A DNA stretch of 64,000 nucleotides, from positions 160,001 to 224,000 of the IMG/VR virus record IMGVR_UViG_3300032321_002024, one strand, 5' to 3'. Shown in pieces: positions 22,351 to 62,038 of the stretch. The notes beneath the pieces were generated by a model that was not told the DNA's origin, made no database searches, and saw nothing but the letters and a program-made list of their open reading frames with translations. Origin of the DNA: a virus. Its lineage: Duplodnaviria > Caudoviricetes. Every line of letters starts with the position of its first letter. Positions within the stretch are counted from its first letter, which is position 1. The position numbers and the translations under genes are program-made.

Positions 22351-22785
22351 ATGAGTATAGTAAATAACAGAAAAGCATATTTTGAGTATCATATTCTTGA
22401 AGAATTTGAAGCTGGAATTGTGCTATTGGGTTCTGAAGTAAAGTCAATTAGAATGGGTAATGTTACCTTAACCGATTCTTTTATTTACTTAAAATCTGGT
22501 GAAGTGTGGATTAAGAATTTTAAAGTTGCAAGATATAAACAAACACATCTTTCTGAAAAACACGAAGATAATAGAGAGAAGAAGTTGTTGCTTACAAAGA
22601 CACAGATTATAAAAATATCTCGAATGATGGAAGATAAAGGTATAACTTGTGTTCCACTTCAGGTCTTTTCCAAAAATAACAAATTAAAAGTTAAAATTGG
22701 TGTTGTAAAAGGAAAAAAACTTTATGATAAAAGACAGTCTATCAAAGAACGAGATATCAAAAGAGAAATGCAAAGAGGTTTATAA
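22351..22785 (+). CDS. smpB: SsrA-binding protein SmpB
   Basis: NRKAYFEY..EAGIVLLGSEVKSIR...KLLL...KGKKLYDKR. Confidence 0.95.
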   Translation: MSIVNNRKAYFEYHILEEFEAGIVLLGSEVKSIRMGNVTLTDSFIYLKSGEVWIKNFKVARYKQTHLSEKHEDNREKKLLLTKTQIIKISRMMEDKGITCVPLQVFSKNNKLKVKIGVVKGKKLYDKRQSIKERDIKREMQRGL

Positions 22786-24793: not shown

Positions 24794-24824
24794 TTTGTTT
24801 ATTAAAAAATAATTATTACTTTTG
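24794..24824 (+). promoter_or_regulatory. Bacteroidota-type sigmaA promoter
   Basis: TTTG-N19-TACTTTTG. Confidence 0.65.
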
Positions 24825-24830
24825 TATTCA

Positions 24831-25229
24831 TAAAGAGATATCAAAACAATAGTTTCGAGAAAATGCGGAAAGAAACAAGTTTTTAACTTCAAACGCTTAT
24901 GTGTGAGTTTTGATGTAATTATGGTGGTAAGTAGCTGACAAATAAATTAACACTCTTACTAAAAATCAGTGAACCACCTTGTATTATATATATTAGATAT
25001 AAATAAGAAGGGTGTATGTATTGAGAATTGAGTTGGTTCGATATACTTCTATTAATTTAGTAAATTTCAACTCTAAAGAGATTTTAAACGAGCAGAATGG
25101 TAACACTGCTTAACCAAGGGCGATGAACCCATTAAAAGGTAATCCTAAGTGATGAGGTCACTAAAAGTCAAGTTACTATAGGTTCTAGGGTTCCGACCAT
25201 ACTTGACAGGCGTTCCAAACTCTCTTTAT
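24831..25229 (+). ncRNA. candidate structured non-coding RNA, unknown family
   Basis: ORF-free 400 nt after a promoter; AAAGAGA (24832 and 25075) complementary to TCTCTTT (25221); several hairpins in 25075-25227. Confidence 0.45.
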
Positions 25230-25250
25230 TTAATTGTAAAAATTTAAACA

Positions 25251-25673
25251 ATGATAAAAGAACAAATTAACAATGACTACATGACGGCATTCAAATCAAA
25301 GAATACTGTTGCTAAAAACTTACTTTCTGTTGTGAAAGGAGAAATTCAAACTATTGAAAAAAATACTGGTGTTGATAATTTGTCTGATGAAGAAGTTCTC
25401 AAAATTTTAACAAAGACATCAAAATCTCTTAATGAGACTATTAAAGCATTATCACCAATTGATGGTAAAGGGGAAGATTTAGTTCAAGCGTGTGCTGAAT
25501 TAGCAATAGTTCAATGTTACCTACCAAAACAAATGTCTAAAGAAGAAGTTGCTGATAAAGTAACTGAACTTGTAAATTCTGGTGTAACAAATATAGGATT
25601 AATTATGAAAGAATTTGCAACTCTACCTGTAGATAAGAAATTGGTTTCTGAAATAGCAAAAACATTTTTATAA
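25251..25673 (+). CDS. yqeY: GatB/YqeY domain protein
   Basis: IKEQINNDYMTAFKSK...LSDEEVLKIL...ELAIVQCYLPKQMS...IGLIMK. Confidence 0.85.
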   Translation: MIKEQINNDYMTAFKSKNTVAKNLLSVVKGEIQTIEKNTGVDNLSDEEVLKILTKTSKSLNETIKALSPIDGKGEDLVQACAELAIVQCYLPKQMSKEEVADKVTELVNSGVTNIGLIMKEFATLPVDKKLVSEIAKTFL

Positions 25674-26255: not shown

Positions 26256-26287
26256 TTTGGTAGAATTAAAACTTTTTACTAATTTTG
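26256..26287 (+). promoter_or_regulatory. Bacteroidota-type promoter of tRNA operon 1
   Basis: TTTG-N20-TAATTTTG; a TAATATATA motif follows at 26319-26327. Confidence 0.7.
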
Positions 26288-26332
26288 TGTAAAATAAGAA
26301 CAAAAGAGAAAAACTTTTTAATATATAAAGAA

Positions 26333-26434
26333 ATGACAACAAATCGCACACATAAGCATTTTAGTAAATCGAGCAAGTGGTTTAGCACCCAGTTCGGTAC
26401 TGAGAAAGTATTGTGTGATTTTTCTACACTATAA
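26333..26434 (+). CDS. attenuator leader peptide 1 (33 aa)
   Basis: MTTNRTHKHFSKSSKWFSTQFGTEKVLCDFSTL; R,H,K,F,S,W match downstream tRNAs; contains AGTTCGGtACT complementary to the terminator 5' arm. Confidence 0.8.
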   Translation: MTTNRTHKHFSKSSKWFSTQFGTEKVLCDFSTL

Positions 26435-26459
26435 TGTAGTAAATTATAAGACAATATTT

Positions 26460-26493
26460 AAAGTCCGAACTTCAAAAGAGTTCGGACTTTTTT
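26460..26493 (+). terminator. attenuator terminator 1
   Basis: AAAGTCCGAACT-TCAAAAG-AGTTCGGACTTTTTT. Confidence 0.85.
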
Positions 26494-26507
26494 GTTTATA
26501 TCATTTT

Positions 26508-26580
26508 GGAATGGTGGCAGATCAGGTGATTGCGCTGGACTGAAAATCCAGAGGAGTGGGTTCGATACCCACCCGTTCCA
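26508..26580 (+). tRNA. tRNA-Phe(GAA)
   Basis: Cloverleaf; CTGGA-CTGAAAA-TCCAG. Confidence 0.9.
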
Positions 26581-26589
26581 CAAAATTTA

Positions 26590-26662
26590 GGACTCGTAGC
26601 TTAATCGGGAAAGCACTCCGCTTTTAACGGAGGGAGAGTGGGATCGTAACCCACCGGGTCCA
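26590..26662 (+). tRNA. tRNA-Lys(TTT)
   Basis: CTCCG-CTTTTAA-CGGAG; T-loop ATCGTAA. Confidence 0.9.
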
Positions 26663-26670
26663 CTAAATAT

Positions 26671-26743
26671 GATTTCGTAGCTCAGTTGGTAGAGCACCGC
26701 ACTTTTAATGCGGGGGTCGAGGGTTCGAACCCCTCCGGGATCA
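26671..26743 (+). tRNA. tRNA-Lys(TTT)
   Basis: CCGCA-CTTTTAA-TGCGG; canonical T-loop. Confidence 0.92.
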
Positions 26744-26745
26744 CT

Positions 26746-26818
26746 GTGAATGTAGCTCAATTGGTAGAGCGCTTGATTGTGATTCAAGAGGTAGCGGGAT
26801 CGTAACCCGTCATTCACC
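26746..26818 (+). tRNA. tRNA-His(GTG)
   Basis: CTTGA-TTGTGAT-TCAAG; C73. Confidence 0.9.
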
Positions 26819-26822
26819 AAAT

Positions 26823-26893
26823 ACGTCATACAGACATGGTGTCGGTCAGGTCTCCAAAACCTCGACGGGTGGGTTCAATTCCTACATGGCGTG
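26823..26893 (+). tRNA. tRNA-Trp(CCA)
   Basis: AGGT-CTCCAAA-ACCT; acceptor ACGTCAT/ATGGCGT. Confidence 0.85.
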
Positions 26894-26901
26894 CTAATAA
26901 T

Positions 26902-27030
26902 GGGGATGTAGCTCAGTGGTAGAGATTAAACTTCTCTTTTGAAATTTTACCTTGTAAGAGTGTTGATTGAAAGAGTTACTTCGTATATTTTGAACATATA
27001 AGGTCGTTGGTTCGAATCCAACCATCCCCG
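26902..27030 (+). tRNA. atypical tRNA (anticodon TGA, short variable loop) interrupted by a 57-nt insert
   Basis: Removing 26925-26981 gives a 72-nt cloverleaf GGGGATG..GCTC/GAGC..TATAT-TTTGAAC-ATATA..TTCGAAT..CATCCCC-G. Confidence 0.65.
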
Positions 27031-27036
27031 CTAAAT

Positions 27037-27109
27037 AGTTTCGTCGTTCAACTGGACAGGACACTCGGCTACGAACCGAGAAATGAAGATTCGACTTCTT
27101 CCGAGACTA
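27037..27109 (+). tRNA. tRNA-Arg(ACG)
   Basis: CTCGG-CTACGAA-CCGAG. Confidence 0.88.
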
Positions 27110-27118
27110 CAAAAAAAA

Positions 27119-27202
27119 GGAAGAGTAATTAAGCTGGCGCTTGACCTAGTCTTGAAAACTAGTGGTACTGAAAGGTATGGGGATCGATACCTCACTCTTC
27201 CG
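27119..27202 (+). tRNA. tRNA-Ser(TGA)
   Basis: CTAGT-CTTGAAA-ACTAG; long variable arm; G73. Confidence 0.88.
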
Positions 27203-27209
27203 CAAAAAA

Positions 27210-27296
27210 GGAGAATAAACTAATCTGGTGATTAGGACCGCCTGCTAAGCGAGTCGCACGTTGAATTTGTGTGGGGTTCAATTCCTCTGTTCTCCG
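27210..27296 (+). tRNA. tRNA-Ser(GCT)
   Basis: CGC-CTGCTAA-GCG; long variable arm. Confidence 0.88.
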
Positions 27297-37135: not shown

Positions 37136-37249
37136 ATGAAAACAAATAATACAAATATGATGAACCTGACACTCAATGTGGTGAATATTACGTTATGTAA
37201 TATTAGACCTTCTGAGGGTTCTCCGCTATTTAGTAAATTTGTCTTTTGA
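37136..37249 (+). CDS. attenuator leader peptide 4 (37 aa)
   Basis: MKTNNTNMMNLTLNVVNITLCNIRPSEGSPLFSKFVF; residues 3-24 use only T,N,M,L,V,I,C,R; TCTGAGGGTTCT is an exact 12-nt complement of the terminator 5' arm. Confidence 0.85.
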   Translation: MKTNNTNMMNLTLNVVNITLCNIRPSEGSPLFSKFVF

Positions 37250-37277
37250 TATGTGAAAATTTATAACTAAATAATTA

Positions 37278-37309
37278 AGAACCCTCAGATAAAAATCTGA
37301 GGGTTTTTT
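37278..37309 (+). terminator. attenuator terminator 4
   Basis: AGAACCCTCAGAT-AAAA-ATCTGAGGGTTTTTT. Confidence 0.88.
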
Positions 37310-37324
37310 GTTTTAATAAAATTT

Positions 37325-37397
37325 GACTCCTTCGTCCAACGGGACAGGACATCGCTCTTCTAAAGCGAAGATACTGGTTCGAATCCAGTAGGGGTTA
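37325..37397 (+). tRNA. tRNA-Arg(TCT)
   Basis: TCGCT-CTTCTAA-AGCGA. Confidence 0.9.
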
Positions 37398-37404
37398 CTA
37401 AAAT

Positions 37405-37493
37405 GGGCTTGTAGCTGATTTGGTTTTAGCTGGTGACTGTTAATCACTGTATGAAAAATTGAAATAAAGTAGGTTCGAATCCTGCCTGGCCCG
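37405..37493 (+). tRNA. tRNA-Asn(GTT) with enlarged variable region
   Basis: GGTGA-CTGTTAA-TCACT; about 20-nt AT-rich variable region. Confidence 0.8.
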
Positions 37494-37500
37494 CAAAAAT

Positions 37501-37573
37501 AGTCTTGTAGCTCAATCGGGGGAGCGCCACTGTTACATAGTGGAGGGAGTCGGATCGTAACCGACCAGGACTA
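37501..37573 (+). tRNA. tRNA-Val(TAC)
   Basis: CCACT-GTTACAT-AGTGG. Confidence 0.85.
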
Positions 37574-37580
37574 CAAAAAC

Positions 37581-37654
37581 TGTCGATTAGCTCATTTGGT
37601 CAGAGCGCCACGCTGATACCGTGGAGGTGGTGGGATCGTAACCCGCATCGACAA
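37581..37654 (+). tRNA. tRNA-Ile(GAT)
   Basis: CCACG-CTGATAC-CGTGG. Confidence 0.9.
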
Positions 37655-37664
37655 CAAAAAAAAT

Positions 37665-37737
37665 GACACCGTGTCTGAATGGCTTAGGTCCCAGTCTGCA
37701 AAACTGTGGTATGTCGGTTCGAACCCGACCGGTGTCT
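37665..37737 (+). tRNA. tRNA-Cys(GCA)
   Basis: CAGT-CTGCAAA-ACTG; U73. Confidence 0.9.
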
Positions 37738-37743
37738 CAATAA

Positions 37744-37815
37744 GCTTCTTAAGCATTAATGGTGATGCGCTAGTCTTGTAAACTAGAGAAATCGGATCGT
37801 TACCGGTAAGAAGCT
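37744..37815 (+). tRNA. tRNA-Thr(TGT)
   Basis: CTAGT-CTTGTAA-ACTAG. Confidence 0.88.
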
Positions 37816-37817
37816 CA

Positions 37818-37937
37818 ATAACAGATGGTGATTAAGAGTGTTACTTCGTGAAATTGGTATACACATTTGACTTATAATCAAACTTTTGAGGGTTCAAGTC
37901 CCTCAGTAAAATCACTCTCAAGACTTTCCTCTGTTAT
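37818..37937 (+). ncRNA. tRNA-like element (D, anticodon TAT and T arms) enclosed in a long non-tRNA stem
   Basis: TTTGA-CTTATAA-TCAAA and GAGGG-TTCAAGT-CCCTC arms flanked by AGAGTG/CACTCT and ATAACAGA/TCTGTTAT helices. Confidence 0.6.
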
Positions 37938-37941
37938 ATCT

Positions 37942-38032
37942 GCCTCAGTGGCGAAATTTGGTTGAAACGCGCTAGACTTAGGATCTAGTACCCAAGTGGT
38001 AAACGTTGTCGGTTCGAGTCCGACCTGAGGTA
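37942..38032 (+). tRNA. tRNA-Leu(TAG)
   Basis: CTAGA-CTTAGGA-TCTAG; long variable arm. Confidence 0.9.
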
Positions 38033-38042
38033 CAAAAATTGC

Positions 38043-38114
38043 TACCGCGGCTTAGTGGAAAAGAACATTGGCTCATATCCTATGTTAAGTGAGTTCGAAC
38101 CTCATACGCGGTAC
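38043..38114 (+). tRNA. degenerate tRNA-Met-like (CAT)
   Basis: TACCGCG/CGCGGTA acceptor, CTCATAT loop, TTCGAAC T-loop; irregular spacing. Confidence 0.5.
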
Positions 38115-38683
38115 TATCTTACAATTGTAACGTGACCGGTGATTAACTTCTTATCATCGTTATCAATCATATCTAACCTCATTATCCAAGAATATGTTCC
38201 ATCCGGAACTAACACACCGTTATATGTTCCATCCCATTTAGAATTAACATCATTGGATTCCCATATTAAACCACCCCATCTGTTGTATATTGATAATTGA
38301 AAATTATCAACAGATATACCACTTGTTAATATTGGACCCCACGTCTGATTAAACTCATTTCCATCTGGAGTAAACGAATTAGGAACCCAATAAATTAGTG
38401 GATCACACTGAGTAACAATAATACTCAATACCTGTGGTGTTCCGGGACATCCTATATCATTATACCCAATTGCAACTAATTGAAAATCACCTGGTTCATC
38501 ATAAGTTATATCTACTGATAAACCCTGACCAATTAAACTTCCATTTAGAAACCATTCTACCGAACCATTAACATCAATTGTAGTTGAATAAGTAAAAGTA
38601 TTTGCATTCTCACAAATCTCAAATGTATGTTGACTAAAAACATTTAGACTGATTAATAAGAACAAAGATAAAATTAGTTTCAT
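38114..38683 (-). CDS. T9SS type B (gliding-motility-associated) C-terminal domain protein
   Basis: Signal peptide; VPNSFTPDGNEFN..IYNRWG..WDG..GTY..GHVTIVR. Confidence 0.88.
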   Translation of the reverse strand: MKLILSLFLLISLNVFSQHTFEICENANTFTYSTTIDVNGSVEWFLNGSLIGQGLSVDITYDEPGDFQLVAIGYNDIGCPGTPQVLSIIVTQCDPLIYWVPNSFTPDGNEFNQTWGPILTSGISVDNFQLSIYNRWGGLIWESNDVNSKWDGTYNGVLVPDGTYSWIMRLDMIDNDDKKLITGHVTIVR

Positions 38684-49426: not shown

Positions 49427-49519
49427 ATGAAAAACTTAAATGTAAATATCGTAGTAAATCAACAACCGCAGGATCAAGATCGTGTCGGAGTGGCTAACTA
49501 TGTCTTTACAATAAGTTAA
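49427..49519 (+). CDS. attenuator leader peptide 5 (30 aa)
   Basis: MKNLNVNIVVNQQPQDQDRVGVANYVFTIS; QQPQDQD matches downstream Asp, Asp, Pro and Gln tRNAs. Confidence 0.85.
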   Translation: MKNLNVNIVVNQQPQDQDRVGVANYVFTIS

Positions 49520-49540
49520 AAATTTATATAACAAATTTGT

Positions 49541-49573
49541 AAAACCCGGTTAGTAATCTAATCGGGTTTTTTT
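49541..49573 (+). terminator. attenuator terminator 5
   Basis: AAAACCCGGTTAG-TAAT-CTAATCGGGTTTTTTT. Confidence 0.85.
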
Positions 49574-49580
49574 GTTTTTA

Positions 49581-49652
49581 GGTCTATTAGGGTAGTGGTT
49601 ATCCTTCCTCACTGTCTATGAGGAGACGCGAGTTCGATTCTCGCATAGACCG
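49581..49652 (+). tRNA. tRNA-Asp(GTC)
   Basis: CCTCA-CTGTCTA-TGAGG. Confidence 0.9.
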
Positions 49653-49716
49653 CAAGTTGGGTTGTGAGTGACTTCCCGTTTTGGCTTAAGCCTTAGGTAT
49701 GGAACTCTCAAATTTT

Positions 49717-49789
49717 GGTCTATTGGTGAAATGGCTTATCATCCCACCCTGTCACGGTGGAGTAGACGGATCGTAACCGTCATAGACCG
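49717..49789 (+). tRNA. tRNA-Asp(GTC)
   Basis: CCACC-CTGTCAC-GGTGG; T-loop ATCGTAA. Confidence 0.88.
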
Positions 49790-49853
49790 CACAAAGTAAC
49801 TGTTTGGTGGTGAAAGTACTCTTTAGGGAATAGAGTAAAATAATTCTCAAAAA

Positions 49854-49927
49854 CTAGGTGTAGCTCAGTTTGGTAGAGCGGGGAGTTTGGGACTCTCAGG
49901 CCGCAGGTTCGAACCCTGTCACTTAGA
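49854..49927 (+). tRNA. tRNA-Pro(TGG)
   Basis: GGGAG-TTTGGGA-CTCTC. Confidence 0.9.
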
Positions 49928-49935
49928 CTTAAAAT

Positions 49936-50010
49936 TGTCCTGTAGTGAAATTGGCATCACGTATCATTTTGGCTGATAAGTTTGAGGTTCGAACCCTCAC
50001 AGGACAACCA
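49936..50010 (+). tRNA. tRNA-Gln(TTG), CCA encoded
   Basis: TATCA-TTTTGGC-TGATA; ends ACCA. Confidence 0.88.
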
Positions 50011-61018: not shown

Positions 61019-61025
61019 CAAAAGA

Positions 61026-61055
61026 GTTCTCAACGGAGAACAACGTTCTTTGAAA
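61026..61055 (+). promoter_or_regulatory. boxB-like hairpin plus boxA-like antitermination site
   Basis: GTTCTC-AACG-GAGAAC hairpin followed by GTTCTTTGAAA. Confidence 0.55.
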
Positions 61056-61059
61056 TATT

Positions 61060-61897
61060 GTCTTTAACAGTCGGTTTCGGCTGACTGTGAAAAGAAGGGC
61101 GGCTTATAGTCCTTAAAATAAACTTCGAAAGGAGGATAAAGTGAATCCAAAGCAAAATGGATTTGCGTCTTGAAAGTTCTTCGGAACAATTGAGGTCGAG
61201 TAAGCAAGTGGGATACCACAAATTCTGAGTAGTCGAGGGTAACACTGTAGACCAAATGAGTTTGTGACCAGGCAATTGTAGATTGTTTGGTTGACCTCGG
61301 AAGAGGAATAGGAATAACCCATAGGTCTGTTGCGAGAAGTGTTGACTCACCGGTCTTCATCATTGCGGAGTCCAACTTAAGAGGTGTCTTAAAGTTGAAA
61401 GACAATCAAGTGTACGGGTGGTGCTGTTACTTGACACTCTACTCTCTACCAGGAGAGTTGTTGTGAAGATATCTTAAAAAGTTGTGATGGAGGCATCACA
61501 CGGAGTTGTCCAGTATTCCTGAGTTCAAAAGATTTGGGAGCTGAAAGGTAACCACAACTTCGACAAAATCTACAAAGCACTACAATTTAAATGTAAAAAC
61601 TTAAATCGAAAGTGTTACCTAGTTACTGGTGAAAGGTACCTACTTAGTCGTGAGTGTTCACGGCCACTGAAGCTCGAAAGGCTGATGTGATTTCATCGAA
61701 AAGCTTATAGAGGGTCGAACCTCGAGTCAGCTCGCAAGGTTGAGTAAGTGGATTAAATGGAGAGTAATTAGTAACTTAAGGAGTGGTTAGTCTAACTAAC
61801 CGGTATTGGCAGAATACTTCTCAAAAGGGAGTGGATAAGAAGGGAAACCATAATCTAACAAAAGTTCTGTCGTAATAAGGTGTAATCTCAACCTTTT
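61060..61897 (+). ncRNA. large structured ncRNA, GOLLD-like (boundaries approximate)
   Basis: About 840 nt, GC-enriched, no plausible + strand ORF, many hairpins (GNRA-type loops), located within a tRNA cluster; family inferred from size and context only. Confidence 0.6.
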
Positions 61898-62038
61898 CTG
61901 GTCGGTTCATTGGAACCATTGAGAGCAAGACTCAAACCGACCACGAAGTTTTCGTAGTGGTTAACTTTTCCCTTTAATTAGGGGGTCTACTGAAATGAGT
62001 AAGTAGGGTGGGTACCAAACCCCATACTAAAAAAACTT

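Follow-up and report, generated by a model that had tools for sequence, protein, structure and literature searches.

The locus described here raises the question of why a phage would carry, ahead of a block of tRNA genes, a short open reading frame whose codons are read by those very tRNAs, followed by an intrinsic terminator. The purpose of phage tRNAs has long been debated, with codon compensation set against the replacement of tRNAs that the host has destroyed (PMC10264068). The window analyzed is a 64,000-nt stretch (positions 160,001 to 224,000) of the IMG/VR virus record IMGVR_UViG_3300032321_002024. This record has 262,603 bases with 29.8% GC and is ~84% complete, so the genome is at least 262 kb long, and it encodes a terminase, a sheath-like protein, a capsid-like protein, and the ribosomal protein bS21. 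The bS21 gene, the GC content of about 30%, and the many tRNAs are shared with the bS21-encoding phages of Bacteroidetes (PMC9723584) and with huge phages (PMC7162821), neither of which papers mentions attenuation; the likeness to the bS21 group is one of gene content and GC rather than of a marker tree. From this resemblance to the bS21 phages of Bacteroidetes we infer that the host belongs to the Bacteroidota. The same leader family is also present in the 635-kb GenBank phage LR745206.1.

The first unit in the window consists of a leader ORF (leader 1), located 5′ of an intrinsic terminator and, to judge from the sequence, in the same transcript unit as the tRNA genes that follow (operon 1):

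26333–26434, + strand: leader ORF of 33 codons; in 75 family members the ATG is invariant and third positions vary
26345–26386, + strand: sensor codons 5–18 (Arg, His, Lys, Phe, Ser, Trp, and one Thr), 13 of 14 read by the tRNAs of the operon
26508–26581, + strand: tRNA-Phe(GAA), from ARAGORN/Rfam-type tRNA calls
26590–26663, + strand: tRNA-Lys(TTT), from tRNA calls
26671–26744, + strand: tRNA-Lys(TTT), second copy, from tRNA calls
26746–26818, + strand: tRNA-His(GTG), from tRNA calls
26823–26894, + strand: tRNA-Trp(CCA), from a tRNA call
26902–27031, + strand: tRNA-like RNA, the ninth tRNA-like gene of the operon (Rfam tRNA, 45 bits)
27037–27110, + strand: tRNA-Arg(ACG), from tRNA calls
27119–27202, + strand: tRNA-Ser(TGA), from lower-threshold ARAGORN and Rfam, anticodon read from the sequence
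about 27209–27296, + strand: tRNA-Ser(GCT), from lower-threshold ARAGORN and Rfam, anticodon read from the sequence

Both Ser tRNAs were missed by ARAGORN with default settings, and were seen at the lower threshold and as long-arm tRNAs in Rfam. In the tRNA-like RNA, a 57-nt insert follows the D-arm, the anticodon loop contains TGA, and the variable loop is short, while its 26 homologs at the same place in related phages often have an imperfect anticodon stem; this RNA is probably not a working, decoding tRNA-Ser.

The initial annotation had listed codons 5–18 of this ORF and counted 13 of the 14 as read by the tRNAs of the operon, and both the listing and the count proved exact, with ACA (Thr) as the sole unmatched codon. 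Since 21.6%–24.7% of the codons in the genome are readable by the operon 1 tRNAs (a background of 0.22–0.25), the probability of at least 13 matches among 14 codons is 2 × 10⁻⁸ to 1 × 10⁻⁷. The same range of codons is returned by a rule that is blind to codon identity: taking the segment from 15 to 2 codons 5′ of the antiterminator strand yields exactly codons 5–18 of leader 1. Two of the codons used, TCG and AAG, depend on wobble for their reading, as operon 1 does not contain Ser-CGA and Lys-CTT tRNAs. Leader 1 has two AAG codons, and tRNA-Lys(CTT) occurs in 38 of 75 relatives.

The RNA of leader 1 can form three mutually exclusive helices (1:2, 2:3, and 3:4), which were analyzed by duplex prediction, covariation among family members, and a folding model:

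26341–26350, + strand: 5′ strand of the outer helix, containing the CGC codon; predicted to pair with 26412–26421 (10 bp, −10.5 kcal/mol)
26363–26374, + strand: segment 1 (codons 11–14, Ser-Lys-Ser-Ser), pairs with segment 2
26391–26401, + strand: segment 2, the antiterminator strand, pairs with segment 3 or segment 1
26412–26421, + strand: predicted 3′ strand of the outer helix
26460–26497, + strand: intrinsic terminator (segments 3:4, 13 bp, −18 kcal/mol) with its T-tract, hairpin to 26490

The pairing of 26391–26401 with the terminator, which had been suggested earlier, was confirmed; it involves 26462–26471, with one bulged T, and the duplex has a predicted stability of −12.8 kcal/mol. Across 30 members of the family, the six core pairs of the 2:3 helix were intact in 178 of 180 cells, and over the whole helix 13 cells were changed on both sides, a result reached in 0 of 500 shuffles. 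The covariation of the terminator was also strong (44 cells changed on both sides), and that of the 1:2 helix was weak: 95% of its cells were paired in the 30 sequences, but it was nearly invariant with few compensatory changes, and part of this conservation was fixed by the search pattern used to collect the relatives. The 1:2 hairpin, which is long and may be a pause structure, is closed by the outer helix, and an equivalent of the latter with a different sequence is found in most relatives.

In the folding model the ribosome footprint was masked on the nascent RNA at equilibrium, with pausing left out. The probability of the 2:3 helix was 0.98 with the A-site at codons 8–17, which corresponds to full switching to readthrough, 0.6–0.7 for codons 3–6, 0.24 without a ribosome, and about 0 for codons 20–28, with the switch closing from codon 19–20. 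A ribosome placed on the stop codon gave an ambiguous value of 0.48, and the model permits pairing around the ribosome there. A profile of the same shape was obtained in 75 relatives. Both the model and the distribution of matched codons along the leaders (described below) place the codons where a stalled ribosome would block region 1 and free region 2.

The codon match, the conservation, the covariation, and the folding model strongly support the earlier proposal of an attenuator: leader 1 very probably acts as a ribosome-stalling transcription attenuator that would make the phage tRNAs on demand by feedback. In the proposed mechanism, RNA polymerase would initiate upstream, and a ribosome would translate leader 1. 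A ribosome moving fast through the His, Phe, Lys, Ser, and Trp codons would pass over segment 2, or the 1:2 and outer helices would fold; the terminator would then form, and the tRNA genes would be mostly off. A ribosome stalled at about codons 8–17 would instead cover segment 1, so that segment 2 would capture segment 3 and transcription would read through into tRNA genes whose products read the same codons on which the ribosome had stalled. The signal would be a shortage of usable aminoacyl-tRNA from any cause, including the loss of host tRNA, phage demand, or poor charging. From the anatomy, codon match, and covariation, together with the modeled switch, we infer that the leader is translated and regulates these genes in vivo, and its trigger may be either the depletion of host tRNAs, as proposed in PMC10264068, or phage demand.

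Four sister units with the same arrangement were found in the window:

32866–33263, + strand: sister unit 2, Tyr/Glu leader, terminator, tRNA-Glu, and tRNA-Tyr
33317–33694, + strand: sister unit 3, leader with ATA, GCG, and GGC/GGG codons; tRNA-Ile(TAT), tRNA-Gly(TCC), and tRNA-Ala(TGC)
37136–38116, + strand: sister unit 4, leader with AGA, ATT, and Asn/Thr/Leu/Val/Cys/Met codons (12–13 of 14 matched)
within 37136–38116, + strand: tRNAs of sister unit 4, Arg(TCT), Asn, Val, Ile(GAT), Cys, Thr, Leu, and Met
49427–50010, + strand: sister unit 5, Gln/Pro/Asp leader; two tRNA-Asp, tRNA-Pro, and tRNA-Gln

When the five leaders were compared with the five operons, the true assignment was the best of 120 permutations, a result that stands even though leader 5 was scored in this test with a misplaced segment 2 (a weak duplex, with 0 of 9 codons matched); its segment 2 corresponds to codons 23–25. 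No such leader stands ahead of the three tRNA-Met(CAT) genes that lie on their own. The tRNA-Ile with the rare TAT anticodon (33460–33534) lies behind the leader that uses ATA, and a second tRNA-Ile(TAT) copy at 37839–37913 has a poor acceptor stem.

Two putative promoter elements precede leader 1:

26256–26287, + strand: putative Bacteroidota-type promoter (TTTG, 20 nt, TAnnTTTG)
26319–26327, + strand: WATATATA motif, a probable phage promoter element, 5 nt 5′ of the leader ATG

Sites of the Bacteroidota type number 29 genome-wide versus 10 in shuffles, and leaders 4 and 5 are also preceded by one. Another is located at 33012–33045, 3′ of the leader 2 terminator, and could bypass the attenuator of sister unit 2. 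Of 259 ORFs, 77 have the WATATATA motif in the 60 nt ahead of them, mostly 4–8 or 16–30 nt from the start, and many of the genes preceded by it share a similar MKYLKxFE-like N-terminus.

The relation between leaders and tRNA genes was also followed in related phages, by applying the codon-blind pipeline to loci collected in viral and metagenome scans. The data comprised 222 distinct leader–terminator–tRNA units in 45 peptide families, although the relatives are not independent of each other and the family counts are small. When each family was represented by a single member, the fraction of matched codons was 0.45–0.48, as compared to 0.16–0.17 with the operons shuffled. Matched codons peaked in the stretch 9 to 4 codons 5′ of segment 2 (0.56–0.70), while matching at and after segment 2 was at background (0.11–0.19; 27 families in both cases), and this peak and drop tie the codons to the RNA switch. 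The content of the leaders tracks the rearrangement of tRNA genes: poly-Gln leaders precede Gln-only operons, the leader of a merged Tyr/Glu/Ile/Gly/Ala operon is itself merged, and tRNAs for Arg and Ser that were split off have Ser/Arg leaders. Four loci (L513, L526, L552, and L551) carry a single leader with nearly all 20 amino acids once each before an array of 17–33 tRNAs. In a scan of one genome for each of 185,579 prokaryote species, the leader 1 family had one match, which was in an archaeal MAG and had no tRNA in its vicinity; by this homology scan, which covered that family only, it looks restricted to phages. The cultured crAss-like phage DAC17 had no such leader at the tRNAs in the stretch examined.

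The initial annotation had further proposed that the match extends to isoacceptors, with CGC assigned to tRNA-Arg(ACG) and the TCG and AGT/AGC codons to the two Ser tRNAs. System-wide, the codon box did follow the tRNA species for Arg and Ile. Operons with only a CGN-reading tRNA had 41 CGN and 9 AGR codons, while those with only Arg(TCT) had 2 CGN and 13 AGR (6:0 versus 1:4 by leader family, p = 0.015); ATA was found with Ile(TAT) and ATY with Ile(GAT) (families 3:0 versus 0:8, p = 0.006). Within this genome, CGC accompanies Arg(ACG) and AGA accompanies Arg(TCT). For Ser and Leu there was no clear box matching across leader families: the Ser boxes did not differ in the two large families, and small split operons leaned in the right direction (7 TCN and 0 AGY codons with TGA only; 3 AGT and 2 TCA with GCT only). 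Sensor codons would then be chosen, at least for Arg and Ile, by codon box to suit the downstream tRNA species. It is conceivable, if somewhat short of probable, that the leaders are translation-coupled gauges of the host's usable tRNA in each codon box, in which wobble-read codons give sensitivity and only the lost tRNA groups are replaced, for example those lost to tRNA-cutting defenses. If so, the leaders would be a sequence-encoded record of the tRNA species that are short during infection, re-tuned when the operons were rearranged.

The Arg/Ser part of operon 1 has a history of its own. In 29 of 37 scorable relatives a second attenuator for the Arg/Ser tRNAs lies directly behind operon 1, including the four with the nearest leaders (about 90% identical), which have the same codons. 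No terminator was found between operon 1 and this second unit (0 of 29 relatives), and hence the first leader still partly gates the Arg/Ser tRNAs there. In 9 of the 29 (L235, L317, and L117 among them) the second leader has no WATATATA motif, so that the two attenuators stand in series. The leader tree, which is unrooted and leaves out the doubtful L293, contains five changes between the two layouts and groups leader 1 with four relatives that have the separate layout (support 96/88). An extra Ser codon in codons 5–9 is found in 4 of 5 lineages with Ser tRNAs directly behind the leader versus 1 of 29 other relatives, and leader 1 of the window has none. The phage of the window has probably lost the second attenuator recently, with leader 1 still in its ancestral form; the direction of this Arg/Ser fusion follows from the majority state among relatives.

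These observations bear on the strongest form of the proposal, that leader 1 gauges Arg(ACG), Ser(TGA), and Ser(GCT) individually with codons selected for this purpose, which we consider rather doubtful. In its favor, the CGC codon is rare in the genome (0.2 per 1000 codons), Arg at this position in relatives is always encoded by CGY (20 CGC, 9 CGT, no AGR), and the first leader partly gates the Arg/Ser tRNAs even in the separate layout. A CGN codon is present in 4 of 4 leaders with Arg(ACG) directly downstream versus 13 of 29 with a second attenuator, which is not significant (p = 0.10). On the other hand, CGC is base-paired in the outer helix at the edge of the sensor window, and in the model a stall there gives partial readthrough (0.58–0.68), similar to that at the neighboring unmatched Thr/Asn codons; the identity of the codons in the four nearest leaders, despite their separate Arg/Ser attenuator, also speaks against such selection. 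The Ser boxes are uninformative, because operon 1 has tRNAs for both and therefore any Ser codon matches it, and both boxes are expected by chance among four Ser codons with a probability of 0.65. Moreover, AGT and TCG form the 5′ strand of the 1:2 helix, and Ser/Arg-family leaders retain AGT even where no Ser(GCT) was detected. Hence, the pairing of CGC with Arg(ACG) and the presence of both Ser boxes with their tRNAs stand as described, but do not establish isoacceptor sensing in leader 1. The core sensors would be the His, Phe, Lys, and Trp codons, and probably those for Ser, while CGC appears to be a marginal sensor with an additional structural role; its exchange to AGA would also break the outer helix.

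The same switch could sense only amino acid starvation through uncharged tRNA, at the level of the amino acid, with the choice among synonymous codons explained by RNA structure and charging sensitivity. A stall cannot tell uncharged from missing tRNA, as established for the trp and his leaders, and codon choice tunes the sensitivity to starvation (PMC1183508). The location of CGC, AGT, and TCG in helices is consistent with this explanation, as is the enrichment of G-ending codons, which among matched two-fold codons reached 0.48 versus 0.20, but was also present past segment 2 (0.40 versus 0.22 expected). This enrichment was therefore rejected as proof of wobble sensing, and may be structural. 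However, starvation alone is unlikely, because, for Arg and Ile, independent families show a codon box that goes with the tRNA species in both directions, and because extra tRNA would not relieve a lack of amino acid. Matched two-fold codons also favor the U-ending wobble codon (0.89 versus 0.73 expected, and 0.53 in unmatched codons), which is the opposite of a GC effect. Overall, the codon choice fits selection for sensitive codons, under tRNA loss and poor charging alike.

Hairpins preceding tRNAs can serve in processing, and any slow elongation across codons 8–17 would flip the model. Leader 1 could accordingly be a sensor of general translation rate or infection stage, a constitutive partial terminator, or a processing hairpin, with the codon match secondary, but this is very unlikely given that each of the five differing leaders fits its own operon (1 of 120 permutations) and that leader content tracks the rearrangements. 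That the ORF arose by chance, or that its product is a functional small protein or arrest peptide, is hardly credible: the FSKS..WF motif is kept in 75 relatives, partly by search design, but codon sensing and the helices account for its conservation, and leaders of other operons share the layout without any peptide sequence in common (45 families).

Several other features were noted in the window. A SmpB-like gene (22351–22785; PHROG 6791, by sequence) and a YqeY/GatB-like gene (25251–25673; PHROG 1460) are located near the tRNA operon; despite the former, the ~84% complete record contained no credible tmRNA candidate. The ORF-free gap at 24794–25240 opens with a Bacteroidota-type promoter; an Rfam search of this gap at E ≤ 5 gave no match, nor was a credible tmRNA found in it. 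A GOLLD RNA (61501–61894, in the region 61020–61900; 281.7 bits) lies behind a tRNA-Met and tandem promoters of the Bacteroidota type, and has no leader attenuator.

The attenuator proposed here has its closest mechanistic counterparts in the E. coli leaders trpL, hisL, and pheL and the multivalent thrL and ilvL (modeled in PMC1183508), with which it shares the short ORF whose regulatory codons lie in region 1, the exclusive 1:2, 2:3, and 3:4 hairpins, the terminator with its T-tract, and the stall window ending just before region 2. It differs from them in that it is encoded by a phage, samples six amino acids, has its stop codon 33 nt past region 2, and contains an extra outer helix. It also precedes tRNA genes rather than genes of biosynthetic enzymes, so that the product would close the loop directly. 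No Rfam leader family reached threshold at leader 1 (the best was Thr_leader, with 19.8 bits versus 55), and with tRNAs as its downstream genes, it is not an attenuator of the trpL, hisL, thrL, ilvL, or pheL type.

Rfam gave no T-box match at the gathering threshold or at E ≤ 5. Feedback on charged tRNA through termination and antitermination is known from the pheM attenuator of E. coli pheST and from the T-box riboswitches that precede synthetase genes. The targets in these systems are synthetase or biosynthesis genes, and a T-box recognizes tRNA by direct binding, independently of translation. T-boxes have reportedly been found ahead of tRNA-Ala genes in clostridia.

The likely purpose of the tRNA genes is the same as in work on tRNA depletion, according to which phage tRNAs counter the loss of host tRNAs (PMC10264068; PARIS, PMC11464382; retrons, PMC11555353), and the accessible parts of these papers describe no demand-sensing control. 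A literature search, with most subscription journals outside its reach, found no precedent for the attenuation of tRNA genes. In function, the closest precedent is the tRNA L-array of Anabaena PCC 7120 (PMC8421152), likewise a supernumerary array induced when translation is impaired; unlike the units described here, it is induced as a whole and has no codon-matched leaders, and that paper mentions neither attenuation nor a leader. A stall-sensing switch before each tRNA block implies that the tRNAs are produced when needed, and it predicts for each codon which block a given shortage should induce. The leaders could also serve as compact natural reporters of tRNA availability. The mechanism is known from amino acid operons; its use on tRNA genes, for which this search found no precedent, would extend attenuation to a new target whose product would feed back directly on the switch.
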